A stretch of 64,000 nt of DNA from an uncultured Acidobacteriota bacterium (GCA_963836435.1 CAWIJI010000006.1:62956-126955); one strand, 5' to 3'; shown: positions 17,781 through 41,173, counted from the stretch's first letter. Translations and numbers: made by a program. Notes: a model not told the origin generated them from the sequence alone.

Positions 17781-18230
17781 TCACTCAACCCAGAGGACTT
17801 CCAGCCCGAGTAGTTGAGCGACATCTCTCTGGCGGGAATCGGAGGTGATGAATGGCAGACCTCTGGGAAATCGATCGAGCAAGACGGTGGCGCTCGCGAG
17901 ATGTATTGCGTCGAGAGCGCGGACGTCAAAATCCGCCACGTAGCGTTCGGCTTTCTCCAGAACAGATTCGGCCAGCTCTACCAGGCGGAACTTCAAACGA
18001 TGCTGAGAGAATCGCTTCGCCAACGCCGCATGCGATCTTTCATCAATGGCGCCGGATGTCAGATTGCGGCGGAACGCGGACGTCAATTCCACGCCCGCTA
18101 TCGACGACGTCATTACCAGGTGCGTGCGAACAAGTCGCCGGGCTTTATCGGATCCAGCTTCACGGACATAGTTCTTTGCAAGAACGCTGCTGTCAAAGTA
18201 GGCGGCCGATGGGGCTTTCTCATTGATCAC
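17781..18230 (-). CDS. vapC: type II toxin-antitoxin system VapC-family toxin (PIN domain)
   Basis: PIN signature (AYFDSSVLAKNY...LDAIHLASA...) and an overlap with the upstream antitoxin gene. Confidence 0.8.
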   Translation of the reverse strand: MINEKAPSAAYFDSSVLAKNYVREAGSDKARRLVRTHLVMTSSIAGVELTSAFRRNLTSGAIDERSHAALAKRFSQHRLKFRLVELAESVLEKAERYVADFDVRALDAIHLASATVLLDRFPRGLPFITSDSRQRDVAQLLGLEVLWVE

Positions 18231-18498
18231 GCAGTTCCCTCAAGGTTTTTGACAGCAACACGCCCTTCAAACTCAGGGGCTTCCATGAGTCACGGATGAG
18301 CCCAGCCTTCATGTTCGGTCTTAATAGGCCTTCCTGCTCAAGCTCCAGCAGAGTTTCTTCCTCCGAAGCCGCTTTCGAATATGGTTGAATTGTCGCGATA
18401 GGATTGCCTCTCTCCGTTAAAACAACAATTTTCCCCGCTTTGACCGCTTTAATGGCCTTGGAAAAACTCTGATTGGCTTCCCGTAGCCCCATTCTCAT
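18220..18498 (-). CDS. type II antitoxin (Phd/YefM-like) partner of VapC
   Basis: A 92-aa protein whose gene overlaps vapC by 11 nt. The N-terminal ...LREANQSFSKAIKAVKAGKIVVLTERGNPIATIQPY is typical of Phd/YefM-type antitoxins. Confidence 0.65.
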   Translation of the reverse strand: MRMGLREANQSFSKAIKAVKAGKIVVLTERGNPIATIQPYSKAASEEETLLELEQEGLLRPNMKAGLIRDSWKPLSLKGVLLSKTLRELRDQ

Positions 18499-19210
18499 GT
18501 TTTCAACCTCACTACGTCACTACATTACCATTACAGCAGCAAAAGCTGAACTTGATTCCGGGGTTCGCACGATTCGGATCAATCGAAACTGGCTCCGGGC
18601 CGTAGATGGTGCCTTCCAGCGTGACCAGAGCGTTCCGCGCCTTCGTGATTCTCAGCAACTCCTTCATACGCACCTATGGATTCCGGGGATCATTCAACAA
18701 TTGTTCAGCACGTCAGTCATGCGGCCATCGGCCTTAATCGTTGCGACGAAATCCTGACGATCCGCGGCATGACTTCCTTCATGCGCTACCGTCTCTTTGT
18801 TCTTAATGTTGTCTCTTTGAATCCAAACCTTCATTGTGGCCGTGAAACAATCGTTAGCGAAAGCGAGCGGTCCGCGAACAACTTCTCCAGCTCGATCGCG
18901 CAATTTATCGGCGAAACCCACCGTTACCCCGTTGTCCTTCCCGCGCTCCCCATAAGCTCTCGCAAACAGGGAGGGCGGATTATTGAGACATGAGGAAACG
19001 GGCGGATTTCTGATGCTTTGGATTGAACCGTTTGCGGCCTCCGCCCTTCACCTTGTGGAAACATGTTGAAACATGGTGCTTTCGCATCTACAAATTTATC
19101 TACAGTCCGACTTCGTCAGCATCTACAAATTCGCCTACAGCCCAAAGAACGCAGGTAGAAAAAAACTCCAGGTTTTTTCTGGCTTATGCGCTAGGGAATG
19201 AACTCAGAAG

Positions 19211-19459
19211 TTACGTGTTCGAACGGCCGCGTCGCATCTTTTCAGCCTCTTCTTTCGTAAGCGCTATGGCCGGAGCACTCTGTCGTTCCTGCTCAACTTG
19301 AACAACCGTGAGTTGGCGGCCAAGCCTCTTTTCAATAGTAGGAATCATCTCGTCGAAGTCCGGCACTGTAACGATCTCAAGCCCTTCAGGGTTCGGCCTC
19401 GCCGTCAACTCTCCGTAGGCACCGACTTCATAAATCTCGATGGATTTGTTTGGCGGCAT
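19211..19459 (-). CDS. hypothetical small protein
   Basis: An 82-aa ORF between two TA modules with no recognisable family. It lies in a lower-GC stretch. Confidence 0.2.
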   Translation of the reverse strand: MPPNKSIEIYEVGAYGELTARPNPEGLEIVTVPDFDEMIPTIEKRLGRQLTVVQVEQERQSAPAIALTKEEAEKMRRGRSNT

Positions 19460-19528
19460 GACGGGAACCAGGATCGGCAGAAACTCATATCCGTCCCGAG
19501 GAGTTTTTCGGTCGCAGACCTTCCGCCT

Positions 19529-19942
19529 TTAAACCTTTCCCCAGTCTTCCCAATCGAGCCCCTTCACGCGGCTGAACTCTCTCGCGTTTGCGGTTACGAG
19601 CGTCACCCTGTGGCGTAGCGCCTGCCCTGCCATCAACAAATCGTAAGCACCGATGGGGCGGCCTGCTGATTCCAAAGACGCACGCACTGCCCCAGCCGTC
19701 TTAGCGTCTTCTTCCTCGAAGTTCATCAAAACCATCGGCCCTGAAAAAAACGTTCGCAGTCGGTCACGGTTTTGTTCCTTTTGAGTGCTCTTTTCGGCTC
19801 CGTACCAGAGTTCGAAAGCAGCGATCGAGGATACGTGCACAATATCTCCCGTATTAATTGCCTTTTGAAACCGGCTGCGTACGTTGGCAGGCTTACCGTT
19901 AATTAAAGCGATACACGCATTCGTATCGAGGAGATACCTCAA
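19529..19942 (-). CDS. vapC: type II toxin-antitoxin system VapC-family toxin (PIN domain)
   Basis: Begins (M/L)[13 protein letters not shown] with a TTG start. Classic VapC acidic residues are present. Confidence 0.85.
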
Positions 19943-20178
19943 TCGAATATCTCACGACGTGGCGGCGCTGGTTGCTTGCGGTTCCCTTTCTTCATGAACT
20001 CGCCCTTGAATTGATCAAGTTTGCCGAACCATTGACGGACATCTGTCAGCTTCGGCTCAAGAAGTACTCCATTACCCACTTGGCGGATGAGAACCTCATC
20101 CCCTTCAAACCGAAACTCACGAGGGAGCCGAACAGCTTGGCTACGACCGTTTCGAAACAGTTTTGCAGTTTTCGACAC
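19939..20178 (-). CDS. vapB: VapB antitoxin (AbrB/MazE/SpoVT fold)
   Basis: ...[41 protein letters not shown]... overlapping the vapC start. The start is moved to the in-frame GTG (V17 of the ORF-track translation). Confidence 0.75.
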
Positions 20179-20385
20179 AGGCACTCCTATGGTCGATATA
20201 TACCACAAATATATACCAGAACGCATCTTTGAGCAGCAAGTCGACCGAACTTTGAAGCATCGCGCCTCGCCCGACTTCTGGGCTTGTTTCTCCGCATTAC
20301 CTCAACACATCCAAGAACAGGCGCGAAAGAATTTCGAATTACTCAAACAGGATCTTCGGGCTGTGCCACCGCGTCTTTGGTAACT

Positions 20386-20700
20386 ATTGTGCGTACCGTA
20401 TCAGCACTTTTCCCATCGGCCCTTCGGCGAGCCGGGCGAAGGCGGCCGGAAGCTGATCGAAGGAAAACACATGGTCAATGAGCGGCCTCGCTCCGGTCTT
20501 GTTGAGAAGACCCAGCGATGCGTTCCAGGCCTGACGGCTCTCCGAATTCGTGTAGGCGCCGACGGCGACACCGCCGATGCGCAGGCGGCGGAAGAACAGC
20601 GTCGCGGTGTTGAATTGCGGGGCTTCACCGGCCAGACGCCCGACGACGCTGATGCGTCCATGGTCGGAACATAGCCAGTTAAGAGGCCGGTCGAGAGTAT
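20386..20700 (-). pseudogene. MDR-family Zn-dependent oxidoreductase (quinone oxidoreductase-like), C-terminal fragment
   Basis: The minus-strand translation ends ...NASLGLLNKTGARPLIDHVFSFDQLPAAFARLAEGPMGKVLIRYAQ*. The 5' part of the gene is replaced by repeat copy B at 20740. Confidence 0.45.
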
Positions 20701-20739
20701 CGGCTTGTAGAAACCGGGATTTCGGTGTCGTATAAGAGC

Positions 20740-20830
20740 GATTACGTTAAGTTGGGGTGCATCACCCTGAAGGATGGTCTCCGAGGCGGGCCGGGCAGGC
20801 CGCTATTTTCCGGGCTGGCGGCCGAACAAC
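20740..20830. repeat. structured repeat family, copy B
   Basis: Same core as copy A, with the upstream extension tgtcgtataagagcgattac shared with copy D. Confidence 0.6.
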
Positions 20831-20854
20831 CGATACTCCCCGCGATCATCCGTG

Positions 20855-21370
20855 ATCCTGGGAGCCGGAACGACAAAGGCTGTCGCGGCCGACACTGCCA
20901 GAAGGCTGAACAATGGCCCACACGCTCGCATTGGCCAGCAAATTTCCGTCCGCATCACGCACGCGGCCTGAAATCGCCCCGCCACGAACCCACGACAGGG
21001 AGACATCGGCGGCCGGCGGCCGCGGATCGACCGTCACCGTTTGAGTAACGAAGGCCGGATAGACTCCGTTTGAGAGCGCGCCGAAATAACCTTCCAGCTC
21101 CGTCCCGAGGCCGCGGCGGCCTCATGTCGGTGTTCCGCGAGAATTGGCGGATCCAGACACAATGTGGCACGATGTCCCCCACGAAGGAGGGATCTCCCTG
21201 AACTCCAACTCCGGCTCTAATTGCTGAAAGGGTTCCGCCTCACCGAAAAGAATACGCCGTCCCCCAAAGATCGACGGTTCCGTCTGGGCCACTCTATAAC
21301 GGAACACCCGTTATACCGCCCCATCGGTCATACTCTCTCGACACCGCGGTTAAACCGCTTATCCGTCCTA
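20855..21370. repeat. segmental duplication copy 1 (about 510 bp, near-identical to 24233-24745)
   Basis: Aligns base-for-base with 24233-24745 apart from a few mismatches. It contains a CarboxypepD_reg N-terminal remnant (MTVDPRPPAADVSLSWVRGGAISGRVRDADGN). Confidence 0.75.
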
Positions 21371-21382
21371 CAGGCTCCTAGA

Positions 21383-22932
21383 CTAGAAGGCCGTAACGTC
21401 AATCGACCGTCGACCGAGTTCCTCAATTCTCACAGCCTGACCTTTATCTTCGAAGTCTCTAAGAAACAGCTCATTGCGGTAAGCGGCTCCTGCAAGTTCA
21501 CTCCATGCGAACAAGTGATAGGAACCGGGCGCTATACCGCGAAGCTGATACCGCCCGTTGATATCGCTGACAATTGACCGATACAAAACCCCTGCCGATC
21601 GAAGCGGAGCATCAGGCACTAGGGCAACAACAGCGTTTGATAGTTTCTCACCGCTCGAGTTGCGTACCAGCCCCTCGATGACACTGCCCGGCGTGCGAAG
21701 CACGATCTTGAGTTCGGTATCCGTCGTCAACTGCAGACCAGCCGCACGCACATCTTGTCTGTCAGCCTGCGCAGATTCGACATAGGCATCCGGCGGCATA
21801 CCGACAATCTCCAGTTCATAGAGCGCCGGCGAGAATAGCCCGCCAAAGCAACTATAATTCGTGAAAGCTCCGACTCTTTCGGCATGTGGGGCGTCCGTGT
21901 AGAGCTTGCACAGCAGGTCAGGAGGGTCGGAATGGTTGCCGGACGCATCCTCTAATTCAAGGCCCCCTGTTATGCGTAACCCGGGTGACACAGGTATATC
22001 TACCTTGACGTCAGCGTTTCCCACATCGAACGTGGCATGACCGTAATATAGCTCGGCGCTGCCCGCCACGGCGAAAACCTGATCATACCGCCCAAGAGTC
22101 AGTTCCACTGAGGTGCGACCTGGCCCCAGGGTCAGGTCCAGGTTGGGCAAAGCGACCAAAAACGAGCGAGCGATAGTTTCTCCCAGATCTTTTCCATCCG
22201 TGTCGAGAAAACGAAAACTAACCTTCACTGGATTCTGCACCGGCGCAGGCAGCGTGATAGTTGAGAGGCGCATCTCCTCGCCGGCATTTACATGGATGGG
22301 CTGCGCCAGACTTTCGTCCTCTGTTCCCGGATAAAACAGGCGCACCCGACCGACGCGCCCAGAAACGTAGTAGTCTCCTGGCTGTAATCCATAAAGGCGA
22401 TAGGTTCCGCGATCATCCATGCGCCCAAACACTCCGGAGTGTCGGTCACCACCGGCACGCTAATAAGCTTTCGTTTGCCGTGTTCGTCATAGCCGGAACG
22501 AAACAAGTCGACCTTCGCTTGCGTGCCTGGAAACACTTTGCCATTGGAATCCATGACCTGTCCGGTAATGACGGCCTCTCGGCTCATCCGAAGTTCCACA
22601 TCCTGAACAGGTTCAGAAGAAAGTTCCACCCACACCCCCGGTTCACTAGGGAACTTTAGGGCCGCGGGCCTCGAATAAACCATACCGTTACGGGCGGGCC
22701 TGAAGAAGTACCGACCGGGAGGAACGTCAACCGTAAAGTGTCCAGCGGAATCCGTCAGAGCCTGGTAACTGTACCCCGATGAAACAGCGGAGACAGACAC
22801 GCCTTCGAGCGGCAGACCTTTGTCGGCCTCGACAACGACTCCTTGAACTGAACGGATGGTTTGCGCGAAGTTGGATCGCGGCAGCATGAAAATCGCAGTC
22901 GTCAACGTAACTATGAAAATAACTAACCGCAA
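21383..22932 (-). pseudogene. secreted CarboxypepD_reg-like protein (paralog of 424..2010) disrupted by a frameshift near 22400-22440
   Basis: The N-terminal ORF 22288..22932 has a signal peptide and the motif ...DLFRSGYDEHGKRKLISVP.... The C-terminal ORF 21383..22432 has ...DDRGTYRLYGLQPGDYYVSGRV.... The two are collinear with the 424..2010 protein but lie in different frames. Confidence 0.6.
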
Positions 22933-22994
22933 ACTTCCTCCTGGTCACATGGGCTACAATTCACGTTGGTGCCGCCAACTTGAGCGTCTAAATC

Positions 22995-24235
22995 AACACG
23001 ATAAAATCTTAAATGTACTTTCCAAACCGGACAGGCGTGAGTTTGGCGCGGTCGCAACTAACTTCATCATAGAGATCAACTTGTCTAACATCTCATGGAT
23101 CACACTATCCGTGAATTTATTGGTATGGAATGCTCCTCCAACATTTATTGAGCCGTCCCTGAAATCAAGACACAAGATCCTTAAGGGGCGCGGAAACTCA
23201 GGAAGGTGATCAAGCAACCCCATGCGGCTAATGGTTAGATCATTAACTACATCGGGATTCTCGTTCGTCATCAATTCACATGTTACGACCGGGGTTGAGA
23301 ACTCTTGGATAACGTCTGTTTTCGCCGGGTCGACTGCCGTATTATGAGGTCGCTTAGCATACTCCATGGCATCTCTTGAAAAATACTTGCCTCGGATATG
23401 GCATCCTTAACTCGCACGGTAATGTCTCCTAAGGTTTCACGCGATGAAATATCGACTCCCAGGACGCGGAAAGTCGAAAAATCGCCAATCAACAATTCAG
23501 TATGCCTCTGATCGCGATTTGCAAAATAGACGCCAAACGTGGACTCGTGGAATTGCCGACCAAAGATGAAATAGACAGACCGTAGCGGTGGCGAGCACGG
23601 TATACAAAGTCGACTTGTTGCCTGCAATGGCGTTGCGAAGATTCTCGCAGTCGAAGCTTGAAAGTGCTTTCCGTATGACTCTCCCACTCCCATTTCGGTC
23701 TGCTGGTCTTGAATAGAAAGACCGAATCCGGTCGCCCCTACTATGGTCGGTGATCGCCTGATTTCGTTTCGCAGCTGGGCTAGAGGTAGCGCCTCTTGGC
23801 TGATTGAAGGAAACAATATACCGCTTCGGGCCACTTCCGGAATCGATACAATGGGATCAGGATTTTGGAGCGATCGTAACTCAACGATTCTCGCGGCAAG
23901 TGTCTTGATAGTTGGCGTTTTTGAGAATTGCGCCGGGCTCACACTCACGGCAAAGTGTTCTTCCACGAGGTGAAGAAGTTGCGTGAGAAGCAAAGAGTCG
24001 CCCTCAAGTTCCCAGAACCCGTCGTCGCCCCCCAGTTGATCCTTCTTCAGTATTTCTTCCCAGATTCGCGCAAGCTTGAACTCTTCAGGCGTACTACAAG
24101 GTTTGTAGGCCGCATCCAAATTGGGGCGACTCCGACTCTCGGCAGGCAAGGCCGCTGTATTCACCTTGCCATTAAAACCTCGGGGGATCTCGTTCAGAAC
24201 AATGAAGGAAGCGGGAATCATGTGACTTGGAAGTC
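22995..24235 (-). pseudogene. decayed NRPS fragment: adenylation-domain A10 motif, a PCP (thiolation) domain, and condensation-domain pieces
   Basis: A10-like motif LPSHMIPASFIVLNEIPRGFNGKVNTAALP. PCP core DDGFWELEGDSLLLTQL with the Ser attachment site. A C-domain segment FGVYFANRDQRHTELLIGDFSTFRVLGVDIS...ASIFQEMPWSML. The C-domain C-terminus (HTNKFTDSVIHEMLDKL) lies in another frame, so the gene has internal deletions and frameshifts. Confidence 0.55.
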
Positions 24236-24745
24236 TGGGAGCCGGAACGACAAAGGCTGTCGCGGCCGACACTGCCAGAAGGCTGAACAATGGCCCACAC
24301 GCTCGCATTGGCCAGCAATTTCCGTCCGCATCACGCACGCGGCCTGAAATCGCCCCGCCACGAACCCACGACAGGGAGACATCGGCGGCCGGCGGCCGCG
24401 GATGGACCGTCACCGTTTGAGTAACGAAGGCCGGATAGACTCCGTTTGAGAGCGCGCCGAAATAACCTTCCAGTTCCGTCCCGAGGCCGCGGCGGCCTCA
24501 TGTCGGTGTTCCGCGAGAATTGGCGGATCCAGACACAATGTCGCACGATGTCCCCCACGAAGGAGGGATCTCCCTGAACTCCAACTCCGGCTCTAATTGC
24601 TGAAAGGGTTCCGCCTCACCGAAAAGAATACGCCGTCCCCCAAAGATCGACGGTTCCGTCTGGGCCACTCTATAACGGAACACCCGTTATACCGCCCCAT
24701 CGGTCATACTCTCGACACCGCGGTTAAACCGCTTAGACATCGGCC
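24233..24745. repeat. segmental duplication copy 2 (see 20855-21370)
   Basis: Near-identical to 20855-21370. Here its CarboxypepD remnant is fused in-frame to the NRPS fragment. Confidence 0.75.
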
Positions 24746-24786: not shown

Positions 24787-25326
24787 CTAGGGAATAACCT
24801 CAGCAGCGAGCAGGTTCTCGAGCACGGCGGTTTCACTGATTCCCTCTTTACGTGCCAGTGCTCGCAGCCGCTCAATCGAGCGTGGCGTCAAGCGGAATGT
24901 CTTGGGTACTTTTTTTTCGCCCACCGGTTTCACACGGCGATCACTCAACGGAATGTCCGCCCAAAGCCTGATCTTTGCGTAAGGAACTCCCCTGAATTCG
25001 TTTCCGTCGGCTTTGGAAGCCCGGAGATTGGCGACAACATGCGCCAGATCCTTGTGTCGTTCGGGGTCCAGATCGAAGTGGCGGCCCAGGCGAAGAACCG
25101 CAGCGGGCAGGACTTCCAGAATTCGAGGCTCCACATGCTCCCCCGCCCACAACGCATCATCGAGCCTCAGTCGCTTGTTCGGTTCCGGGCGCAGAGGCAG
25201 GTTCGTCTTGAGAAGACCCTTGGCAACAAGGAACCCCATCGTGTCCAGATAACGCGGATCTTTCCGATTGTTCTCGTCCGTTTTGGCCCGCTTTCGAATC
25301 TGGGCCAGAAGCGCCGCTCGATTCAT
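24787..25326 (-). CDS. hypothetical protein with C-terminal ribbon-helix-helix-like segment
   Basis: The C-terminus KKVPKTFRLTPRSIERLRALARKEGISETAVLENLLAAE resembles an RHH/CopG-like segment. The gene is translationally coupled (ATGA) to the upstream gene. Confidence 0.4.
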   Translation of the reverse strand: MNRAALLAQIRKRAKTDENNRKDPRYLDTMGFLVAKGLLKTNLPLRPEPNKRLRLDDALWAGEHVEPRILEVLPAAVLRLGRHFDLDPERHKDLAHVVANLRASKADGNEFRGVPYAKIRLWADIPLSDRRVKPVGEKKVPKTFRLTPRSIERLRALARKEGISETAVLENLLAAEVIP

Positions 25327-25823
25327 GCGAACTCCTCCAACGTGCCTCCATGTTTGACGATCCGATCCACCAGCGAAGGGAATTGATTCGAAGCAATTGC
25401 CTGACGCAGCAGTTGACGATTCTTCTGTGGCGCCTTCACAGCCTTGCTGACCAGCGCCGACTCGGGATCTAGAACTTCGACTGTCAGGTGTGGAAGGTCC
25501 ATCAATAACAAAAACTTGGCGCCATCCGGAATCCAGATGAGATGACTGTCCTCGTCATAGACAAGCCCGTCGTTTCTCAAGAGCACCTTCAATTCTTCTT
25601 TGACCAGGTAATCCATGACGAGCTCTGCATCAACGTCTACGGTTTGCGTCAAGGCGAGAGAAACCGACTCCTGAACCAGCAAACTAATTTGCCCGAGAAG
25701 CCGAATCCTTGACTTCGGCAAAGGAACCAATCCGTCCATCCGCAGTTTGTGGTTCATCGCCTCGATTCGAGCATCCAAGGCTTGAAACAGTGAAAGAAAG
25801 CGGTCCCTGTGCGACTCCATCAT
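25323..25823 (-). CDS. hypothetical protein (possible nucleotidyltransferase-fold), first gene of a two-gene module
   Basis: A 166-aa protein with a ...LTQTVDVDAELVMDYLV... segment that is weakly reminiscent of minimal nucleotidyltransferase motifs. No confident family assignment. Confidence 0.35.
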   Translation of the reverse strand: MMESHRDRFLSLFQALDARIEAMNHKLRMDGLVPLPKSRIRLLGQISLLVQESVSLALTQTVDVDAELVMDYLVKEELKVLLRNDGLVYDEDSHLIWIPDGAKFLLLMDLPHLTVEVLDPESALVSKAVKAPQKNRQLLRQAIASNQFPSLVDRIVKHGGTLEEFA

Positions 25824-26900: not shown

Positions 26901-28301
26901 CTACCTGGCGCGCGCGGCGCACGCCTCACCGACCAGCCAGGTTCGCCAACCCTGAACAAGGCCCTGGATTTCGGAGTCGCCGGGGCCCAGAGGGCGATTG
27001 GCACGACGACAGGCGCGATCGCGGAGGGCCGCCGGTTCAATGTGCCACGTGTAGTATCGCGCGAGAGGCTCGTTAGAGTCGGATGCCAGCGTGACGAGGT
27101 CGCCGTCGGGAGTGAACCGGTTGGCAAGCGTTTCTCTCGGGATTGCCCGCTGGGTGACATCTTCCAGCGAGCCGATGACTTCGTGGGTTGCACGACTCTG
27201 GAGCGTGAGCGTGGTTTTCAGTTCGCAGCCGGGCGCGAGAACTGCGTCTTCACACCCGGATGATTGCTCCGACACCGTGGCGGTAATCTGCCCATTCGGG
27301 CTGACAGCTTCCTTTTCGGCAGCTTCCGAGGCGACAACGGCTTCGGCCTTTTCGTCAGACGCGGCCCGCTCAACCAGCGGCGCGCCCTTAACGTCCCACA
27401 CCATGACCTTGCCCTGGGCGTCCGCAGTTGCAAGCATGCTGTTGTCCGCACTGAATTGCAGAAACTGCGGCGCTCCGGCATGGCCCGTGAGGCGCAGAGG
27501 CTTGAGCAGGCCAAGTTGGAAACGGAGGTCCTCTTCCTCGATGAGGTTGTCTCCTTCGCGAATCAGTTGGAAGAGATTCCGGCGCTCCGAGACATTGGTC
27601 AGGAGAACATCCGTTCCATCCTGCGATGCGAGATACGCCGCGTCAAAACTCAGCTTGTGCAGGTAACCGTTGACCGGTGCTGTCAGGACCTGGAGCGGCC
27701 GGCGCTCCGGGACGCCCAGGGACAAGTCCCATTCCGATGTCGTGCTGTCCGCCATGATCGCAATCAGGAACTGCCCGGAGGCGTCGAAAGCGACGTCCTG
27801 GCTTTCCTGGTAGTAGAACTGCCGGGTATTGCAGTCGGCCGTATCGACGACGTAGATCCGGCCGGATCCCGTGGCCAGCGCAAGGCGTCGTCCGTCCGCC
27901 GAGAAGCGTATCGCCAGGATCGGGGAATTCCAGATATCGCCGCAGCGGCGTCCCGCGCCCCTGGCGAACAGCTTGAACTCGCTACTGGGCCGGTCACCGT
28001 CACGTAGTGCGACAACATAGAGCCCTCCATGGCGGCTTACCGCGACACCGGTGATGGTTTGGTTGCCACTATAGAGTTGCTCGGGCTCGGGGGAGGCCTG
28101 GGCGAGATCGAGCGAAACCAGCTTGTGCTCGCGTTCGGTCGAAAGAACGGCTAAAAGGCGTTCCGTTGCGGGATAGAAGTGGAGGTCGGTGACTTGTCCC
28201 GAATGGAGCGCGATCGGGGCGCGGCTCAAACGATTCGCTTCGAGGTCGTAGACCAGGATCGACGGTTCCGCGCATCCTGCAGGCCTGCAGCCCGCGACGG
28301 C
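26901..28301 (-). pseudogene. WD40 beta-propeller portion of an IS-split TIR-TM-WD40 gene
   Basis: WD40 blades are present (e.g. GHAGAPQFLQFSADNSMLATADAQGKVMVWDV). The open frame runs up to the IS1182 left inverted repeat at 28302 with no start codon. It is collinear and apparently in frame with the 29979..30905 fragment on the far side of the IS. Confidence 0.6.
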
Positions 28302-29978
28302 TAGGAGCCTGTAGGGGATAGATTTCTAGATTTCGATCAAAAACGGGACCAGTGTTGACGGGCGGGCAGGTAAAAGACGAAGGCATGACCAAATGCTTTG
28401 TTGATGACGAAATCGATCAGATATTGATGATGCCGCCGTCGCTGCACGATTGGCTCCCGGAAGACCATTTGGCGCGATTCGTGGCGGATTTGGTGCCGAG
28501 CCTAGATCTGTCGGCGTTCTACGCTTCCTATGAAGAGAAAGATGGACGAGGCAATGCTGCCTATCATCCGGTGATGATGGTGCGGTTGCTGGTCTATGGC
28601 TACTGCATCGGAGTCGTGAGTTCGCGGCAGATCGAGAAACGGACATACGAGGATGTGGCGTTCCGGTATTTGAGCGCGGATGAACATCCGCACTACACGA
28701 CGATCAACGAATTTCGGAAACGGCATTTGAAAGCATTGGAGGGATTGTTCCTGCAGGTGCTGGAGCTATGTCAGGCAGCGGGTCTGGTGAAGATGGGGCA
28801 TGTGGCCCTGGACGGGACGAAGAAGCAGGCGAACGCCAGCAAGCACAAGGCGATGAGCTATGGGCGGATGGGAGAAGCGGAAGAAAGGCTCAGAGCGCAG
28901 GTGAAGGAACTGCTCGATCGCGCTGAAGCCGTCGACGCGGCCGAAGATGAAATGGAGCGGCAAGGTTACAGCGACAAGTTGCCTGCGGAATTGGCGCGGC
29001 GGGAGAGCCGGTTGAAAAAAATCGCCGAGGCGAAGGCGGCGCTGGAAGCGGAAGCGCGGCGGAAAGCGGAAGAGAAGAAAGCTCAAGCCGAGGCGCGAAT
29101 TGCCGAGCGGCAGCAGCAGGAGCAGGAGACGGGAAAGAAGATCGGCGGGCGGGCGCCGCAGATTCCCGATCCGGAGCAGGCCAAGCCAGAGGATTGCGCG
29201 CAACGCAATTTCACCGATCCTGACAGCCGGATTATGGTCGACGGAGCGAACAAAGGCAGCTTCGTACAAGCCTACAACGCGCAGATCGCGGTGGATGCCG
29301 AAGCGCAAATCATCGTTGCCGCCGACGTCACGCAGGAAGTCAACGACAAGCAGCAATTGGCGCCGATGTTCGAGCAGGTCGAAAAGAATACAGGAGCCAA
29401 ACCAGTGGCGGGCAGCGCCGATAATGGTTATTGGGCTCCAGAACAAATTGCCGACAAGCACGTCGAAGGCATCGATCTCCACATAGCCACCGGGCGGGAT
29501 AAGCATGGAGCATCGGAGCAAACCGCGCCGTCAGCGGAGTCCGCAAAAGCGGCGACAGCTCTGGAGCAGATGAAGCAGAAACTGCAAACGGAGGCGGGGC
29601 GCGCCATTTACAAAATGCGCAAGGCGATCGTCGAACCAGTGTTTGGCCAGATCAAGGAATGCCGTCATTTTCGACGCTTCAGTCTTCGAGGCTTGGAAAA
29701 CGTCAGAGCGGAGTGGAAACTTGTCTGCGCGACACACAACCTTCTGAAGTTATTTCGATCGGGACGCGGATTTCAGGCTGCGGCGGCATGAAGAGGATGC
29801 AGGAACCTCAGAAAACATGATGAGACCGAACTTCTCTCGCCAGTCTCCCCGTGTTCTCGTGCGTCAAGCCTCAAACGCAATGTCGACGGTTCCCGAACGG
29901 CGACCTGCGGAATTTTTCGACACGGAAAATTTCGAATTTTGGGAACGGCGACCTGCCTTATCCCCTACAGGCTCCTAG
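28302..29978 (+). mobile_element. IS1182-family (IS5-like) insertion sequence with about 20-bp terminal inverted repeats
   Basis: Perfect inverted repeats CTAGGAGCCTGTAGGGGATA at 28302-28321 and its reverse complement at 29959-29978. Between them lies a single transposase gene. Confidence 0.75.
28385..29791 (+). CDS. IS1182-family transposase (DDE)
   Basis: N-terminal MTKCFVDDEIDQILMMPPSLHDWLPEDHLARFV... and the DDE region (...VALDGTKKQANASKHKAMSY...FVQAYNAQIAVDAEAQII...) are typical of IS1182-family transposases. The start is taken at M12 of the ORF-track translation. Confidence 0.8.
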   Translation: MTKCFVDDEIDQILMMPPSLHDWLPEDHLARFVADLVPSLDLSAFYASYEEKDGRGNAAYHPVMMVRLLVYGYCIGVVSSRQIEKRTYEDVAFRYLSADEHPHYTTINEFRKRHLKALEGLFLQVLELCQAAGLVKMGHVALDGTKKQANASKHKAMSYGRMGEAEERLRAQVKELLDRAEAVDAAEDEMERQGYSDKLPAELARRESRLKKIAEAKAALEAEARRKAEEKKAQAEARIAERQQQEQETGKKIGGRAPQIPDPEQAKPEDCAQRNFTDPDSRIMVDGANKGSFVQAYNAQIAVDAEAQIIVAADVTQEVNDKQQLAPMFEQVEKNTGAKPVAGSADNGYWAPEQIADKHVEGIDLHIATGRDKHGASEQTAPSAESAKAATALEQMKQKLQTEAGRAIYKMRKAIVEPVFGQIKECRHFRRFSLRGLENVRAEWKLVCATHNLLKLFRSGRGFQAAAA

Positions 29979-30905
29979 TTTCTTTCCGTCGCCCCTAAGC
30001 GTCAGGGCGCGGACTTCGGACAGGTCATGAAAGCTGGTCGCAAGATGTTCCGTGGCGTTGACTGCGGCCAGCAGACTGCCGTAAGCCGCCGCAGTCGGCG
30101 AGGTGTTATAGGCTGCAACGCTCAACAGCAGCGCCGTGTCGGGCGCACTGCGCAACGCGACCGTGGCTTGTTGGGCCAGGCGCGCCGACAACTCGATGCG
30201 AGTGGCATTGATGCCGGTCCTGATGAGGCTGAAGAGAACCATCGCGGCTACCAGAGCGGCCGTGCCCACCGCAAGCCGTTGCCGGCGGCGTCTTTGTCTA
30301 TCCCGCTGCCAGAGTTCGTCGAATTCGACATCGATAATTCGCGCGATGAGCTTCAGCAGCGCCTTGCGGCGCGCAACGCGCGGCCGGCTGTCCTCGCGCA
30401 GGAGGTCGGCCGCAACGGGCTCGACGCGCTTGTCCGTGATCTGGCCTGCCGCATCGACTTCATAGCGGAGCGCTTTGGGGAAACATTCCTGCGCTTCGTC
30501 GCCCGGATGATCCGAGGCGTGAGGCGCCCCGCCGACGATCAGTGCCAGGATATCCGTTTCCCGGCCGGATGCCTTGAACTTCACGACCTCCTTGTTGACC
30601 CACGAGTCAGGCCGCGCGGAGTTCGGCGAACAGAGGACGATCAGGTTGCGCGCCTGGTCCAGTGCATGGCCCAGCGCTGCTTCCAGATTGGGGTCCGAAC
30701 GTAATTCGTCGCGATCGCGGAATACAGGTTCCAGGCGCTTCGGCACGGGGCCCCGACCGGTTTGCCGGCCCACGAGGTTCGAGGGAATGCGGTAGGTCTC
30801 CAGCGCCCCGATCAACCATTTCGCGTGCTTCTGGTCCCGGCTGCTGTAGCTGATGAACGCCCAGTATTTGCGGGTCATCCTGCTGCGGGAATCTTCCGAA
30901 GACAT
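29979..30905 (-). pseudogene. TIR domain plus transmembrane helix: N-terminal part of the IS-split TIR-TM-WD40 gene
   Basis: Bacterial TIR signature (KYWAFISYSSRDQKHAKWLIGALE...LEPVFRDRDEL...LIVLCSPNSARPDSWVNKEV). One TM helix follows (LAVGTAALVAAMVLFSLI). The reading frame then runs straight into the IS1182 right inverted repeat. Confidence 0.65.
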
Positions 30906-31086
30906 GGTCAGATACCTTCGTTCAGATCAGAAAATACGTCCGGATACCGGTTTGCTGAAAACCTCGAAGCGTAACTATCACCCTAAGAACTCATCCGCGC
31001 AGATTTGAAGCCTTCAAACTATCAATTCAGGCGGACTAAATGGAAGTTCGAAGAAATTTAGTAATGAGGCTCGCCGCAACCCACAC

Positions 31087-33237
31087 GTGTGTGAAATCCA
31101 TCATCCTGCGTTTATCAACGTCCCGCAAATTGGCTATGATGTCCACTCCATGCAACAGGCGCTGCTGAAATCAGCCCGTGAATGCCGGTTTTTTCGCGCC
31201 AGCCTTTCCCGGCTTGCGGAAGAACTGCCGGCTGACGACGAGGCGCTCGACGAACTGATTGCTGCGGCGGTTGCCGAGCGGGACAATGACGCTTTTGTCC
31301 GGATCGTTTTCGCGGCTCTGGGCGCAGGACGGCGCGTCGATGCCCGCCACCTCGAGCAGGGTGCTCTTCTTTTTGATGGTCCCGACCAGTTGTCGGCCGC
31401 CGCTCTGCATGCGTCGGGAGATGTTGCGGGATCCCTGATCGCGGCCGTCCAACGCGAGGGTTTGGGCGATGAGCGGGCCGCGGGAGCCCTGCTCCTGGCG
31501 GGTGTGTGGTGCAAGGACCATGGTGTTGAACCGGTTCCATCCGAATTGATCGCGCAGGCTCGGATCCGGGCGCGCCGATTTGGGCGAAGCCTTTTGGTGG
31601 ATCTTCAGATCGCGCTGCTGTCCGACTTGCTTCACGACGAAGGACTCACCACGCTGCTCCAGTCGCTGGGTGTTGCCCCGCCTCCAGCCGCCCTGGCAAA
31701 GAGCTTCCTCGATGGCTTCGTCGACGCCATGAGGGCATCGCCTCTGGCCGTTGTTCCTGAGCGGCCGGGCCCGATTATCCATTCCGGATTCACTTTGCGG
31801 CGGGCGGTCGCGCGAGTTGGACGGAACGAACCCTGCCCGTGTGGAAGCGGCAAGAAATACAAGAAGTGCTGCATGGAAAGGGACGAGGAACGGCTACAGG
31901 CATCTTCGTCAATCGCGGGTATGACCGTCGGCGAACTTCGCGAGCAACGAGAGCGTTTTCTGACCAGTGACGAACTGCTTCAGATGCGTTCCCATGAACT
32001 GGCCCGTCTCGATCCGGCGAAGGTGGCGGCATCTCTCCGGCCGCTTCTGATCAACCGCCTGTTGCTCTTCGGCGAGCGCGAAGCCGCAGTGGAGTTATTC
32101 GAGAAGACTGGCGTACCGGAGGAACTACGCGGTCATTGGCTGGATTGCATCGACACCGTGGTCGCCGCAGGCCGGAAAGATCTGCTGGCACGCCTCCAGC
32201 CGCTTCGTGACCCCTCCGAACTCCAATCCGAGGACTTCCCCTTGGCTGCGAAACTTCTCACGGCAGATCCGGCCGACGTCCTTCACCTGATCGAAAAGGC
32301 TGCCCGGACGCGGCTGGAGCGTGCGGATCAAAGCGACGCCATCGATCTGGCGTATGCACTCCTGGACAGCCCATGGCGCGCGTTGGGGATCCTGGTGGCG
32401 CGAGGATTGATCGCCCACTGCGGATTGTTTGACGCCGAGACCCTGCTGGACGCGATACTGGAAACACGGGATAAGCTGCATGTGCCTCCGGGCGATCCGA
32501 TTCAGGCGGTATTCGACGCGCGGCTCGAAACCTCGCTCGAAGCCCATCGCGATTCCACTGAGCTTCAGGACGCGCACGAAAAACTCCTTGCCAGCGGCGA
32601 GGAACTGAACGCTGCTCGATCGAAGCTGGCGCGCCTGCAGGCCGAACTGGATAAGGCCGAACGCGAGAAGAAGGATCGAGAGCAGCAGACCGTCCCGCTA
32701 TCCTCGGTCAATTCCGCTCCGGTCCAGCCCCTCATCGACGAATCGGCCCTTCAGGAGTTAAGACGCCGCGTCGCTTTCCTGCGCGACGAACTGCAGGAGA
32801 GGCACAGGGAACGGAATCAACTGAGAGGCGACTTGAATCTGGCCCTTGACCGGCTTGAAGAACTGAGCCGAAAAGAACCGGTTCCCGTGGCCGTGGACGA
32901 AATCGAGGACTCGGAGACGGACTGGAGCGACGAGGCGGAACCATCGGGAACACAACCCGTTCGCATCCCCGAGTTTTCCTCGAAGTTCAGGTCATCGCTC
33001 GAGGAGTTGCCCGCACGGATCGTTCGCCAGGCCATGTTATCGATCGGACGGATGGCGGCCGGGGAAAGCGGCGCGTTCGTGGGAATCAAACGATTGACGA
33101 GAAGTCGTGATATCGTCCGGCAGCGGATAGCGGACCATCGCCTCCTGTTCCGCCTTCACCCCCAAGCGATCGAACTCCTGGCTCTGATCCCCCGTCGCGA
33201 CCTCGAGCGAAGAATCAAAAGCCTGATCTCAAGCTGA
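31087..33237 (+). CDS. large SEC-C-motif, coiled-coil protein with C-terminal RelE/ParE-like toxin fold
   Basis: SEC-C metal-binding motif [17 protein letters not shown] at about residue 250. A long helical and coiled-coil region (...[24 protein letters not shown]...[21 protein letters not shown]). An acidic linker. A C-terminal roughly 90 aa ([81 protein letters not shown]) matching the ParE/RelE pattern. The start may instead be the Met at 31150. Confidence 0.5.
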
Positions 33238-33416: not shown

Positions 33417-33515
33417 TTCGGCCCAAGTATGATTCTTCCGTTTTCTTGCTTCTTTCCCGGACTCCGGGGCGCCAGGTGTTTCCTTGTCGGGGGACCTCGC
33501 TTCCGAGCGTCAGTT
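33417..33515. repeat. about 95-bp IS91-transposase 3' fragment (solo copy)
   Basis: Near-identical to 16109-16205 and 45447-45540. Confidence 0.55.
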
Positions 33516-33549
33516 ATTCTCTTTGGCAGGCTTCGTGGGAGGGATTCCG

Positions 33550-34252
33550 ATGAAATACGCCAACCTCGGTGGCACCGGTATCAGCGTGTCGCGCATCTGC
33601 CTCGGCATGATGACGTATGGTTCCAGGCAATGGCGCGACTGGGTTCTGGAGTACCCGGAGGCGAAACCGTTCGTCACACGCGCGCTCGAAGCCGGCGTCA
33701 ATTTCTTTGACACGGCGGACGTCTATTCCAACGGCGCGTCGGAGGAAGTATTGGGCCGCGCACTGCGGGAGATCGGCGTGGACCGTAACGACGTCGTCAT
33801 CGCGACGAAATGCAACTTCGGTGCAGAACCACTACAACCTGCTGTACCGCGAAGAGGAGCGGGAAATGATTCCGCTGTGCGCCGATCAGAAGGTGGGGCT
33901 GATCCCGTGGAGTCCTCTTGCCCGCGGATACCTGGCACGTGATCGCGGGACGCTGAAGGCGACCACGCGTGCGAACTCCGATGAGTTCACGAAGGTCCTG
34001 TATGACCCGGAGTTCGATGGCGCCCTCATCCAGCGCAATGCCGAAACGGCGGCGCGGCTGGGCGTCAAGCCGGCGCAGACGGCGCTCGCCTGGCTGCTCG
34101 CCAAACCCGGTGTGGTCGCCCCGATTGTCGGCGCTTCCAAGCTCCCGCATCTGGATGACGCGATCGCCGCCGTCGATCTGGAACTCTCCGCAGACGACGT
34201 TAAACAACTTGAATCGCTGTACGCGCCGCGCGCCGTTGCCGGACATTCGTAG
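33550..34252 (+). pseudogene. aldo/keto reductase with internal deletion and frameshift
   Basis: AKR N-terminus (MKYANLGGTGISVSRICLGMMTYG...NFFDTADVYSNGASEEVLGRAL...VIATK). It then jumps at about 33820 into a different frame carrying the AKR C-terminal half (QNHYNLLYREEERE...LIPWSPLARGYL...IVGASKLPHLDDAI). The central catalytic part is missing. Confidence 0.55.
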
Positions 34253-34373
34253 TAAACCGCTGACGCAGTAGTTGCAGCCCACAACGTTTGTAGCCCGCAC
34301 AGGCAGGAAGAGCGCTCTTTGGCTGAAGGATACAGACCGGAGATCTCAATAGGGACACTGGATGGGGGCTTTT

Positions 34374-34529
34374 TTACGGTTTCTTCGCGACAACCTTCCC
34401 GTTTTCCCAGACGATGAGCCGCGTGCCGTGCATGCGGGCTGCTTTTCTGGCAGCGCGAGGGACGCGTTTCATTGCCCTGGCAACGGATTCGAAGAACCGT
34501 TTGTCTTCAGCAGACATCTTCTTTTTCAT
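34374..34529 (-). CDS. 51-aa basic protein translationally coupled downstream of the zeta-like ATPase gene
   Basis: MKKKMSAEDKRFFESVARAMKRVPRAARKAARMHGTRLIVWENGKVVAKKP. Its ATG overlaps the ATPase stop (ATGA). Coordinates were derived by hand. Confidence 0.3.
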   Translation of the reverse strand: MKKKMSAEDKRFFESVARAMKRVPRAARKAARMHGTRLIVWENGKVVAKKP

Positions 34530-35053
34530 GTGCGGCCTTGATCGATCAGCTTCGGTGCTCCGGCATTATCGTAAACCATCCAGGCATCGGCCAGGGGGCG
34601 ATAAACGTCTACAAAGTTGTCCCAGCTTCGCTGAAATCTGCGAACGACATCTTCTGCAGCGACATTGTGGCCTCCCTGTTGAACCCGTGCAGCAATGCGC
34701 CGGAGTGCTACTTGAGGTGAGGGAATCGTCAGGTAGATGATTTCGACGCGATATCCTTGAGCCTTCCAGCGCTGCAGACGAAACGCATAGGTCCGTCCGC
34801 TCAACGTGCTTTCGAAGGCGAAGCTGGCGCCACTCGTCGCCAGGCGATCCATCTCTCGAAGGAATAACCGGCCCGCCGCGACGGCCGCCAGTTCAGGGCG
34901 CAGGGGGGAAAGCCCCCCTGCAATCAGATCGGCGTTAACAAAGTGAACGATATTTGATTCCCGCGTGAGGTACTCGCGGGCAAAGGTTGTCTTGCCCGCT
35001 CCATTTGGACCCGCAATGACAAGACATCGCGGTTGTCCATTTCCCTTGGACAT
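34526..35053 (-). CDS. zeta-toxin-like / AAA_33 P-loop kinase-fold ATPase
   Basis: Walker A GPNGAGKTT near the N-terminus. A 175-aa protein with overall similarity to zeta toxin / UNAG-kinase-fold proteins. Confidence 0.55.
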   Translation of the reverse strand: MSKGNGQPRCLVIAGPNGAGKTTFAREYLTRESNIVHFVNADLIAGGLSPLRPELAAVAAGRLFLREMDRLATSGASFAFESTLSGRTYAFRLQRWKAQGYRVEIIYLTIPSPQVALRRIAARVQQGGHNVAAEDVVRRFQRSWDNFVDVYRPLADAWMVYDNAGAPKLIDQGRT

Positions 35054-35309
35054 AGGGAGATGTTACGGGAATTGAGGGACCTTGACCGATTTTTTCCAAA
35101 CAACTTGAATCGCTGTAGGCGCCGCGCGCCGTTGCCGGACATTCGTAGTCTCGGAACGTTGGAGCTGAATCGTTACTGCACGGACTGGGGCACGCCTGTC
35201 TCGAAGAACTTCACCAGCGCATTCTGGCTGGCGGATTGGTCGCCGGCCTCGTGATGGACGTTGGAGAAGCTGCGACGCAGGAAAGGGGGCCCGCGCTTCC
35301 CTATGCCCG

Positions 35310-38926: not shown

Positions 38927-39448
38927 ATGAATCCTGTGGATAACCTTCACGTTTTGGCGTTCCTCTGGTTCGCGGGCGCGGCGACCTTTTTTTTCATAAT
39001 CGCTCAGCGCTTCTTCGCCCGGTCGCAGGAGACCTGGCTGGTGGCTGTTGTGCTGGCCGTGCTGCCTGGCCTCCTGATCCCGCTCATGTGTCACTACAGT
39101 TTGCTGCTTGGCCGCACGCCCGCCTTGATCTACCTCGGATTTGCGGGGCTCGTGACACTCTGGGGCGTCTTGCGAAACGGCAAGACACCTGGTAACCCGC
39201 CTGCAATCCCTCCGGGGACACTCGTCAGTCTGGCTGCGATACCGCTTTCCGGAACACTGGTAGCGTTCATCCTCATGGAGGACGACGTCAGCCAGTGGTG
39301 GAGCTGGCTTCCTTTCGTGATGACGCTCGCTCATGGAGTTGCGATCGGGATTGCGCGGCTGGTGGTGGGACGGCGCGCGCCGGCTGCGGGGGAATCCTCA
39401 GACATGGTTGCAGCGCCCCATGCATCCGTTTGCGAAGGTCTTGCTTGA
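38927..39448 (+). CDS. hypothetical integral membrane protein (4-5 TM)
   Basis: A hydrophobic ORF with TM segments (LHVLAFLWFAGAATFFFII..., WLVAVVLAVLPGLLIPL...). It overlaps the decayed RT fragment on the opposite strand. Confidence 0.3.
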   Translation: MNPVDNLHVLAFLWFAGAATFFFIIAQRFFARSQETWLVAVVLAVLPGLLIPLMCHYSLLLGRTPALIYLGFAGLVTLWGVLRNGKTPGNPPAIPPGTLVSLAAIPLSGTLVAFILMEDDVSQWWSWLPFVMTLAHGVAIGIARLVVGRRAPAAGESSDMVAAPHASVCEGLA

Positions 39449-39722
39449 TCCGTAGCAGCGTCCTCTGTATCCGCTTCCTATCCGTCCGACGTAGTATCGT
39501 GAACGCCCCCGTTTTCGCGTTCTTCCCACAGATATGCGTGAAGCCGAGAAAGGTGAACGATTCCGGTTTTCCTTCTCCACGTTTGGCGCGGTTCGCTTCG
39601 GCGAACCGACCAAACTCGATGAGCCGGGTTTTCTCGCCATGAAGCTCCAGTCCAAACTTCGCCAGCCGTTCCTTGAACTCCGTCAGGAACTGCTCGGCTT
39701 CCTGCTTGTGCTGAAATCCCAC
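39400..39722 (-). pseudogene. group II intron reverse-transcriptase fragment (RT domains 6-7) lying 3' of another intron's domain V
   Basis: ...LELHGEKTRLIEFGRF...ESFTFLGFTHICGKNAKTGAF... carries the FLGF signature of the group II intron-encoded protein RT domain 7. The sequence degenerates after about 39400. Confidence 0.5.
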
Positions 39723-39768
39723 GACAAGGTGAGTAAGGCCCGGGGAGTTTCACCCCGAGCCTCTCGCA

Positions 39769-39802
39769 GAACCGTACTTGAACGTCTCCGCTCATACGGC
39801 TC
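39769..39802 (-). ncRNA. group II intron catalytic domain V
   Basis: The minus-strand sequence is GAGCCGTATGAGCGGAGACGTTCAAGTACGGTTC. It matches the group II domain-V consensus GAGCCGUAUG...CGUACGGUUC, including the AGC triad and the bulged stem. Confidence 0.55.
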
Positions 39803-40787
39803 CCGCCATGGAACCTCTCCGCACGCCCATAGTCCAATGGGCAAACACCTGCGGAGCGCGCCGTGAAATTCGGGCGATCCAATGTGCGGCGCGCCGCTTG
39901 TGACGGCGCAGTTTCTTGTATTTCCGTGACGCCCAGCGCGTCAACGCGCGGTCCAGCGTGCGCATGGACGGATACATTGCCGAGCGGTAGTACCGCCCGT
40001 AGTACTGGAGCCAACCTCGAACGATCGGGTTAAACATCCGGGAGAGATCTTCGATGGACTTATCACTGCATCTGGCCAGGTGCCAGCTCCGAATCTCCGA
40101 CCGTATGGCTTTCGCGGCTTTGTTTGAAACCGCCGGCGTGAAATTGATGAAGAACTTTCCCGCTCCAGTATCCAGTTCACTCGCTTGCTCGCGATTCCCA
40201 CGCTTAACGCATCCAGCGCTCGATGGAAATTTCTTCCGGGACGAAACCCATAGGAGAATCCCGGAAACTCGGCCTCGTAGATTTCGTTGAGGATTGACGC
40301 CACTGCCTGTTGAACAAAATTTGTCCGCCAGTGCAGCAATGCCAATCGGACGTTTCCGTCCGTCCGGCTTTGGGATGTAAATTCTCAGTGAGGATTGTGC
40401 CCGCTAGGCTCCGCGATGCACTCGGCCGTGTAGATCCTTCAAGCGATCTTCCACTCCTTTTTCGTACTCCCTCCACGTCATCTCATCGACTCCCGCGGCT
40501 GCTGTCTTCTTCAGATGCAGAAAACTGCTCCGCAGCAAATCGACCGTCAGGTGGTGGAGTAGGCTCGTGAACCGTTCCTGCTTCTTTTCCTTTGCAGTAC
40601 GGCGCACACGTTGAAGCCCCGTTGACACGTCTTTGTCCCCGCTCGGCGTCGTGGACGTGTGTTGCTCCATCATGTTCTCCTTGTTCGGCGGCCTTCCCTC
40701 CGGACTTCTCCTCCCGTGCTTCATGCCACGTTCGTTCGAATCCTTCATCGGTACTACGCCGCTGTCCGACTCCTCGCCTCCGTTCAT
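39792..40787 (-). pseudogene. group II intron-encoded RT/maturase (IEP), nonsense- and frameshift-disrupted
   Basis: RT domain 0/1 (40404..40787: ...FTSLLHHLTVDLLRSSFLHLKKTAAAGVDEMTWREY...) ends at an in-frame TAG. RT domains 1-2 (39941..40345: QQAVASILNEIYEAEFPGFSYGFRPGRNFHRALDAL) lie in another frame. Maturase domain X (39792..40037: ...IVRGWLQYYGRYY...) is in a third frame. RT domains 3-7 are missing. Confidence 0.6.
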
Positions 40788-41173
40788 GTCCGTCGTGCGG
40801 CCTTGGCCTTCACGGACCGGCCTGATCTCTCAGGCGGCGACGAGGCCTCCCGGTTCTCGTGCATGTTGTTTCTTTGCGTGCGCGGGGTCTACGACTACGG
40901 AGGACTCGACCGACGCTCGCTTAGCGCGCCAGCCAATGGTGCCTTCTCCCTCAGCCTAAAAGATCGGCGTCCCCAATTGGGTTTTCGAAGCTCAATACCC
41001 GGCCCGCAAATGCCTCTGTCTACGCTTCAGTTCTGGCCTCGCGGCCAGCGCTGCAAGACTCAAGGTCAGGATGGTTTGCTACTCCTTTCCTGTAGGACTC
41101 TTTCATTCCCTACAAGATGCCGGTTTATCCCGGCGCACAGGCTGTCCCCAGAACTCCAACTTGAACTGGGAAC

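Follow-up and report, generated by a model that had tools for sequence, protein, structure and literature searches.

Does the large, toxin-like protein encoded at this locus act together with the TIR-WD40 gene that diverges from it, or does it act alone? The locus lies within a 64,000-nt stretch of DNA from an uncultured Acidobacteriota bacterium (GCA_963836435.1, CAWIJI010000006.1:62956-126955), which is referred to here in its entirety as the window and in whose numbering all positions below are given. A preliminary description of this stretch had reported a 716-aa protein combining a SEC-C motif, helical and coiled-coil sequence and a C-terminal RelE/ParE-like fold, and had proposed that it forms a candidate defence or toxin-antitoxin (TA)-like system with the divergent TIR-WD40 gene. 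Comparison of the protein, its homologues and their gene neighbourhoods, together with a structural model, suggests with a probability of roughly 45% that it is a stand-alone, self-regulated RelE-type effector targeting translation, which does not work with the TIR gene. The latter is broken and adjacent only by coincidence, and there is no new two-gene system here.

The gene (+ strand) diverges from a 315-aa TIR open reading frame (ORF) located at 29958-30905 (-). In the mechanical ORF list it extends from a GTG start at 31087 to 33237 (+), giving 716 aa. A database protein 100% identical to it is 695 aa in length and the start falls at the equivalent of Met22 in 40/40 aligned homologues; because the identical protein and these homologues begin at Met22, the gene is best taken as 31150-33237 (+; 695 aa). 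The ORF reported previously is real, but its true start moves the intergenic region from 30906-31086 to 30906-31149, a divergent spacer of 244 bp between the starts of the TIR gene and of the family gene.

An AlphaFold (AF2) model built from 40 homologues (mean pLDDT 85.2, pTM 0.65) orders the protein as an N-terminal solenoid, a zinc-knuckle region, a second solenoid, a coiled-coil hairpin, a disordered linker (aa 576-600 in the model) and a compact alpha/beta domain. This last domain (aa 604-695; 32959-33237 (+) with the stop codon) is the sole part of the protein with specific structural relatives. It consists of an N-terminal strand, two helices, a three-stranded antiparallel sheet and a C-terminal helix, which is the fold of the RelE/ParE toxin superfamily, as had been supposed from the sequence. 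Foldseek returned RelE of Thermus, Methanococcus and Mycobacterium, followed by YafQ, ParE2 and Cami1 (8phb), at a probability of 1.0, with a target TM of 0.70-0.78 for the top three RelE chains and about 0.2-0.6 for later matches such as ParE2 and Cami1. RNase-type toxins ranked slightly above ParE-type toxins in both fold searches. At the sequence level, a profile of the domain (HMMER) weakly matches the RelE chains 2khe, 3bpq and 3g5o of the PDB. Matches of the same profile to designed armadillo-repeat proteins (5mfb, 4d4e) were discarded, as they consist of a short helix matched repeatedly with no stretch passing alone.

The basic active-site residues of RelE are K52, K54, R61 and R81. Among 65 full-length members of the family, R605, R648, R657, R664, R682 and D684 are invariant and R659 is retained in 63. 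HMMER aligned R657-x-R659-x-G-x-x-R664-L-L-F with the K/R-x-R-V-G-x-Y-R motif of Thermus RelE (K-Y-R-V-G-D-Y-R-L) and of M. jannaschii RelE3, in whose deposited chain (Y-R-I-R-V-G-N-Y-[R62S]) the last arginine of the motif is replaced by serine. Using hhalign, R664 was placed on R61 of E. coli RelE in an 18-column match of 1.6% probability to that single sequence. R682 presumably corresponds to R81; this pairing, like the placing of Tyr87 discussed below, was set manually on the E. coli RelE sequence rather than by an alignment tool. By these short and weak alignments, a basic residue occupies each of the four RelE positions (R657, R659, R664 and R682, respectively). Since the domain appears to keep the basic residues with which RelE, in the A site of the ribosome, holds and cuts mRNA, RNA-directed shut-off of translation is its most likely output. 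The K/R-x-R...G-x-Y-R...R constellation appears to be common to the family and to RelE (E. coli, archaeal and Thermus RelE, and also YoeB and YafQ), and both have a strongly basic domain. RelE is, however, a free protein of about 90 aa with an antitoxin gene and Tyr87, whereas here the domain forms the last 92 residues of 695 and neither of these features is present.

The superfamily also includes ParE, and the domain could instead poison DNA gyrase or act on DNA metabolism, an activity that would connect with the restriction-modification (RM) genes found adjacent in 6 of the 46 locus groups described below. The ParE toxins (ParDE; PF05016, PF24732) share the fold, and the best Pfam model for the family is indeed PF24732, named 'ParE_like', which matches 31/32 family members (best 1.7e-8); PF05016 matches 5/32. 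The family nevertheless differs from ParE in its arginine pattern and in its best structural and sequence matches, which fall in the RNase branch: RNase-type members score higher in both fold searches, the sequence-level matches in the PDB are RelE proteins only, and the arginine of G-x-Y-R-L-L-F that aligns with RelE R61 is invariant. There is also no ParD gene here. The ParE toxins of RK2 and Caulobacter are not known to have an arginine at the position of RelE R61. A ParE-like activity is considered very unlikely, and the domain is read with moderate confidence as RelE-like (RNA-directed) rather than ParE-like.

The remainder of the protein appears to be regulatory. The N-terminal alpha-solenoid (aa 1-200, 12 helices; 31150-31749 (+)) is followed by the SEC-C (SecA-like metal-binding) motif at aa 225-242 (31822-31875 (+); checked in translation), which lies where it had been noted and scores 40.1 bits against a cut-off of 20.4 with PF02810 (Pfam, E=3.3e-10). 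It takes the form C-x-C-x8-C-[CH], flanked by G-R-N-[DE]-P and K-K-Y-K, and PDB peptides from the metal-binding domains of SecA and YchJ are nearly identical to it (E about 1e-10); its four cysteines are kept in 64-65 of 65 homologues. In the model, a conserved segment and the second alpha-solenoid come next (aa 246-465, 31885-32544 (+); pairwise identity 36-49%), with invariant residues after the motif at D245, R248, G257, T259, E262 and E268 and in an R440-D441...D449-P450 motif. The helical and coiled-coil part of the preliminary description has resolved into these two alpha-solenoids and an antiparallel coiled-coil hairpin (aa 470-574, 32557-32871 (+)), whose modelled helices span aa 470-513 and 531-574 and are joined by a disordered tip loop (pLDDT <50). 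Helix 2 carries an R-H-x-E-R-N-x-L-R motif (aa 551-559) kept in 63-65 of 65 sequences. Between the hairpin and the RelE-like domain is a disordered acidic linker (aa 575-603, 32872-32958 (+); pLDDT 30-56) with a net charge of -9 in the window copy; over the 65 members its median charge is -7 over 31 aa (range -9 to -3), beside a RelE-like domain that is strongly basic (median charge +9).

Pfam, NCBIfam and fold searches of the whole protein gave no other catalytic domain and no ATPase domain. No CARF match was found in the protein with Pfam, NCBIfam or PADLOC, and no CRISPR genes occurred in any of the contexts seen. PADLOC matches of the protein to PDC-S12, E2, JetC and LmuB cover the SEC-C motif or the coiled coil only and were dropped as evidence of family membership.

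The family to which this protein belongs is large, visible in databases and uncharacterised. A word-indexed search returned 187 relatives, of which those listed are almost all of about 690-720 aa, with a few shorter fragments. The listed relatives carry PF02810, and many also PF24732, in precomputed annotation, and some bear the name RelE at JGI. The few named ones come from Verrucomicrobiota (Chthoniobacteraceae, Prosthecobacter). The novelty claimed for the protein holds insofar as no characterised system was found, but the family itself could already be recognised from this combination of Pfam domains and from the JGI names. An exhaustive search gave 607 representatives of 50%-identity clusters at E<=1e-30; among the best 150 of these, most match from end to end (about 690-710 aa), about 25 shorter ones look like fragments and none is a variant with a different C-terminal effector. 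Apparent candidates for such variants proved to be frameshift products (P0225, P0252) or an internal deletion (P0204).

The effector domain is more conserved than the solenoid scaffold: mean pairwise identity is 60% in the RelE-like domain, 63% in the SEC-C region and 56% in coiled-coil helix 2, as against 34-36% in the two solenoids. Two copies of the family gene stand in tandem on one short contig (L136:2-1240 and 1499-2739; loci are denoted here by L numbers). No family copy was found in collections of phage genomes, viral contigs and plasmids, and a literature search on SEC-C with ParE-like or RelE domains, and on PF24732, yielded nothing relevant. A scan of genome contigs with the full-length alignment keyed on the SEC-C motif gave 80 loci encoding SecA or other SEC-C proteins and 0 family members.

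Gene neighbourhoods were compared using a metagenome scan with the 271-aa C-terminal alignment, which gave 80 loci; with the contexts looked up singly and the window these amount to 88 loci, dereplicated at 80% identity into 46 locus groups. For the eight homologues looked up singly, including the closest at 76, 73, 69 and 68% identity, none had a TIR neighbour, and their neighbours are unrelated to one another (Ppx-GppA, LiaF-like, Ser/Thr kinase, Y2 transposase, dienelactone hydrolase, amidase, oxidoreductase and TPR proteins). Clustering of the ORFs within 6 kb gave no neighbour cluster in more than 5 of the 46 groups. Pfam analysis of two genes on each side (133 proteins from the 45 other groups) gave no family in more than four, TIR not being among the recurrent ones. 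Likewise, no conserved small ORF (40-160 aa) that could encode an antitoxin occurs within 500 nt in more than 4 of the 46 groups, and none occurs in the window. The family has neither a conserved antitoxin gene nor a conserved partner. Since there is no antitoxin gene, control of the RelE-like domain would have to be exerted in cis or via non-adjacent partners.

These results bear directly on the proposal that the protein and the divergent TIR-WD40 gene form a two-gene defence or TA-like system, in which insertion of an insertion sequence (IS) into the TIR gene relieved toxicity. The divergent arrangement across the spacer, the inactivation of the TIR gene by IS1182 and the occurrence of the same pair on one other contig would fit such a system. 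That contig, however, encodes a 100%-identical family protein and represents the same strain, while the TIR gene is found in 0/8 of the singly examined contexts and no neighbour family, TIR or other, recurs in more than four loci among the 45 other groups. Furthermore, beyond the SEC-C motif and a weak TIR match, PADLOC assigned neither protein to a known system; for the TIR protein its matches were to ThsB (E=0.05) and SAVED_TIR (2e-4). With no TIR gene recurring beside the homologues examined, the pairing put forward in the preliminary description does not hold and a two-gene system is extremely unlikely. 'TA-like or defence-like' is a reasonable label for the large protein as a single gene, but not for the pair.

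The TIR gene itself is split. Its 5' part (29979-30905 (-)) encodes the TIR domain (Pfam TIR_2 4.2e-9, ThsB_TIR 1.2e-5) and a predicted transmembrane (TM) helix, and its 3' part (26901-28300 (-)) encodes a WD40 beta-propeller (Pfam WD40 and beta-propeller families). Between them lies an IS1182-family element (28301-29978 (+)), identified by its inverted repeats, its end sequences and matches to NCBIfam and Pfam DUF772/DDE. The transposase is encoded at 28352-29791 (NCBIfam IS1182 transposase, E=4.8e-113) and the terminal inverted repeats are perfect over 20 bp (28301-28320 and 29959-29978); the CTAG at their outer ends (4 bp) is apparently the target-site duplication. When the element is excised in silico together with one CTAG, one continuous TIR-TM-WD40 ORF of 776 aa is restored. 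The ORF at 29958-30905 does contain a TIR domain, as described, but is only the 5' part of the interrupted gene, its last codons lying inside the IS. Because of this interruption the TIR-TM-WD40 gene is probably inactive. The divergent spacer holds a single sigma-70-like match (31112-31140), no more than expected by chance, and has no match in Rfam.

The neighbour found most often beside the family gene is a large single-chain RM enzyme, present in 11/88 loci (6/46 groups). Three subtypes are represented: MmeI-type IIL (L095, L097, L103, L135), type ISP-like (L112, L130, L165) and Eco57I-like (L145, L158, L160, L162). In ten of the eleven loci the RM gene directly adjoins the family gene, upstream or downstream, at a distance of 3-262 nt, and in all eleven the two genes share a strand. 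RM-linked loci are scattered over the family tree, and different subtypes adjoin family proteins sharing 80% identity or more (L130 and L145; L165 and L158). In one further locus, an AAA/HerA-like ATPase and a DUF559 endonuclease are encoded upstream. The family gene may lie at the edge of a defence-gene hot spot, or some members of the family may be coupled in function to RM enzymes; the short gaps and the shared strand would favour coupling.

A conserved ORF of about 100 aa was also observed 12-19 nt after the family gene in MmeI-linked loci (L097:3499-3801, L102:1843-2142, L104:3257-3556, L135:10649-10843). An ASCH-like reading of this ORF was an impression by eye and was set aside, as it has no Pfam match.

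Several points weigh against a RelE-type effector. The window copy itself matches PF24732 only below the gathering cut-off (16.1 bits against 24.4; E=0.26 at full length, 0.012 for the isolated domain), so that in the profile check suggested for the C-terminus most family members match while this copy falls short. Sequence similarity to solved RelE proteins is marginal (HMMER E 0.15-1.7; hhalign probability 1.6%), and for this reason the residue equivalences given above rest on short motifs and on the fold. There is no counterpart of E. coli RelE Tyr87, an Ile, Leu, Arg or Lys standing at the aligned position. Whereas SecA and YecA carry the SEC-C motif at the C-terminus, here it lies inside the chain (aa 225-242 of 695) and is modelled at a pLDDT of 71-83. 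Lastly, the fixed architecture, the dnaB-linked synteny of one clade described below and the lack of copies found on phages and plasmids fit a conserved cellular function at least as well as a defence toxin.

The missing tyrosine and the marginal similarity to active RelE proteins would be expected if the RelE-fold domain were a non-catalytic protein- or RNA-binding module, kept for a structural or targeting purpose on a scaffold whose real activity resides elsewhere or in partners, and a non-toxic domain would also fit the absence of an antitoxin. On the other hand, the four basic positions and R605, R626 and R648 are invariant although the scaffold is only 34-36% identical, which suggests a constrained functional surface, and nothing else in the protein is recognisable as a catalytic domain. 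A non-catalytic role is regarded as improbable.

The last of the points above raises another explanation, in which the protein is a conserved housekeeping factor that associates with ribosomes in Verrucomicrobiota and related phyla. Through the SEC-C knuckle and a RelE-like domain that binds the A site, it would take part in mRNA or ribosome quality control, such as the cutting of mRNA on stalled or collided ribosomes, and its gene would be neither a toxin nor a defence gene. A large, old family of strictly fixed architecture (607 clusters), with conserved motifs along the whole chain, no antitoxin gene and no copies in the phage, viral-contig and plasmid collections, is what would be expected of such a factor, and SecA-type metal-binding domains bind ribosomes in SecA and AscA. 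In one verrucomicrobial clade, moreover, several loci share a synteny of dnaB, a 240-aa ORF without a Pfam match and the family gene (L106, L112, L122, L149, L158/L162). In some of these, RM genes are inserted between or after the syntenic genes. Elsewhere, however, the neighbourhoods are unrelated, also where two proteins share 68-76% identity; frequent neighbours include transposases, RM genes and further variable-region genes, and a tandem duplicate exists. A housekeeping role, the main rival to the effector, is considered unlikely.

As a self-regulated effector, the protein might work as follows. The C-terminal 92 residues would act as a RelE-type domain which, through its intact basic face and a putative RNase activity, shuts off translation in an RNA-directed manner. 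The domain is probably held inactive in cis by the rest of the chain, where the acidic linker, the invariant coiled-coil motif, or both, could mask this basic face, as their charge and conservation suggest. The SecA-like zinc knuckle may bring the protein to ribosomes, and the two more variable solenoids may sense a signal and then release the RelE-like domain. At RM-linked loci this signal could come from the condition of the single-chain restriction enzyme next door, much as PrrC monitors EcoprrI, such that translation would be shut off as a second line when a phage disables restriction. In a variant of this scheme, the protein would sense stalled or collided ribosomes in bacteria, with RelE taking the place of an SMR domain. 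The full proposal, a new class of ribosome-tethered, self-inhibited RelE nucleases in which the knuckle parks the protein, the linker and coiled-coil motif mask the nuclease and the solenoids sense, is considered unlikely in this complete form.

Parts of this scheme have precedents. In Cami1, a RelE nuclease reported to cut mRNA in the A site is joined to a sensor domain (PMC11229360). The AF2 model matches Cami1 (8phb), which differs in having a CARF domain and a type III CRISPR context; the family has neither, and its regulatory part consists of SEC-C, solenoids and coiled coil. CapRel (CapRelSJ46) unites toxin and antitoxin in one chain and responds to a phage protein that it senses (PMC9712102). 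It resembles the family only in the proposed logic, whereby one chain holds a translation-targeting toxin domain off until triggered; its toxin is a toxSAS pyrophosphokinase and not a RelE, and it has no relation to the family in sequence or fold.

PrrC and RloC are anticodon nucleases that are kept latent by RM loci or linked to them, always in the case of PrrC and only at times in that of RloC (PMC1484252, PMC3458546). Like the family, they carry a C-terminal RNase module (putative here) on a large regulatory N-terminal part, and the coiled coil of RloC includes a zinc site. The family differs in the absence of an ABC-ATPase domain, in its nuclease fold and in the adjacent RM systems, which are of type IIG/IIL/ISP and not type I; most of its members, moreover, have no RM neighbour. 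In both SecA and AscA/YecA, the SEC-C-type metal-binding domain is a binding site for SecB and for ribosomes (bioRxiv 10.1101/613315, 10.1101/2020.07.21.215244). The zinc-knuckle sequences of SecA, YecA (AscA) and YchJ are nearly identical to that of the family, but are terminal there and internal here, and the rest of the protein is unrelated. As their defining sensor or ATPase domains are absent, the family protein belongs to none of the Cami1, CapRel and PrrC/RloC families. What would be new here is a RelE-fold toxin domain within a regulated multi-domain protein; the RM adjacency and the proposed cis-regulation are leads.

The surroundings of the family gene in the window comprise, besides TIR-WD40 and IS1182, a zeta-like kinase gene and a group II intron. 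Together with the RM genes beside part of the family, they make up a context of defence type, which favours the effector reading. Downstream, an aldo/keto-reductase gene (33484-34252) is split over two frames (33484-33942 and 33617-34252) and is probably a frameshifted pseudogene or the result of a sequencing error. Its 3' end is duplicated in a 52-nt direct repeat (34202-34253 and 35098-35149, 98% identical), which brackets an insert of about 845 bp encoding a zeta-toxin/AAA_33-like kinase (34526-35053 (-)) and an overlapping 51-aa ORF (34374-34529 (-)); the insert looks like a small cassette. Group II intron RNA was identified within 39288-41101 (-) (Rfam RF02005 at 40885-41101, RF00029 at 39728-39804), with pieces of a reverse-transcriptase-like ORF at 39288-40345.

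On the other side of the locus, the stretch from 18000 to 24500 has a GC content of 0.52, against about 0.60, and may represent DNA that is of foreign origin or in decay. An isolated PP-binding (nonribosomal peptide synthetase-like) fragment (23283-24413 (-)) and a CarboxypepD_reg protein (21383-22432 (-)) are encoded within it. Two genes at 24787-25823 (-), encoding 166 and 179 aa and overlapping by 4 nt, may be a TA-like pair; they have no family match except for a weak ribbon-helix-helix at the C-terminus of the second.

Should the C-terminal domain prove to be an active RelE-type nuclease, the protein would represent a very large, unstudied family in Verrucomicrobiota and their relatives from soil, peat and freshwater. 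In it, a classic type II toxin would have lost its antitoxin gene and become part of a 78-kDa regulated machine with a ribosome-binding motif. This would be the second natural example, after Cami1, of RelE used as a signal-controlled effector, and a testable case of regulation in cis. The recurrent adjacency to three kinds of single-chain restriction enzyme would offer a concrete route to its trigger.

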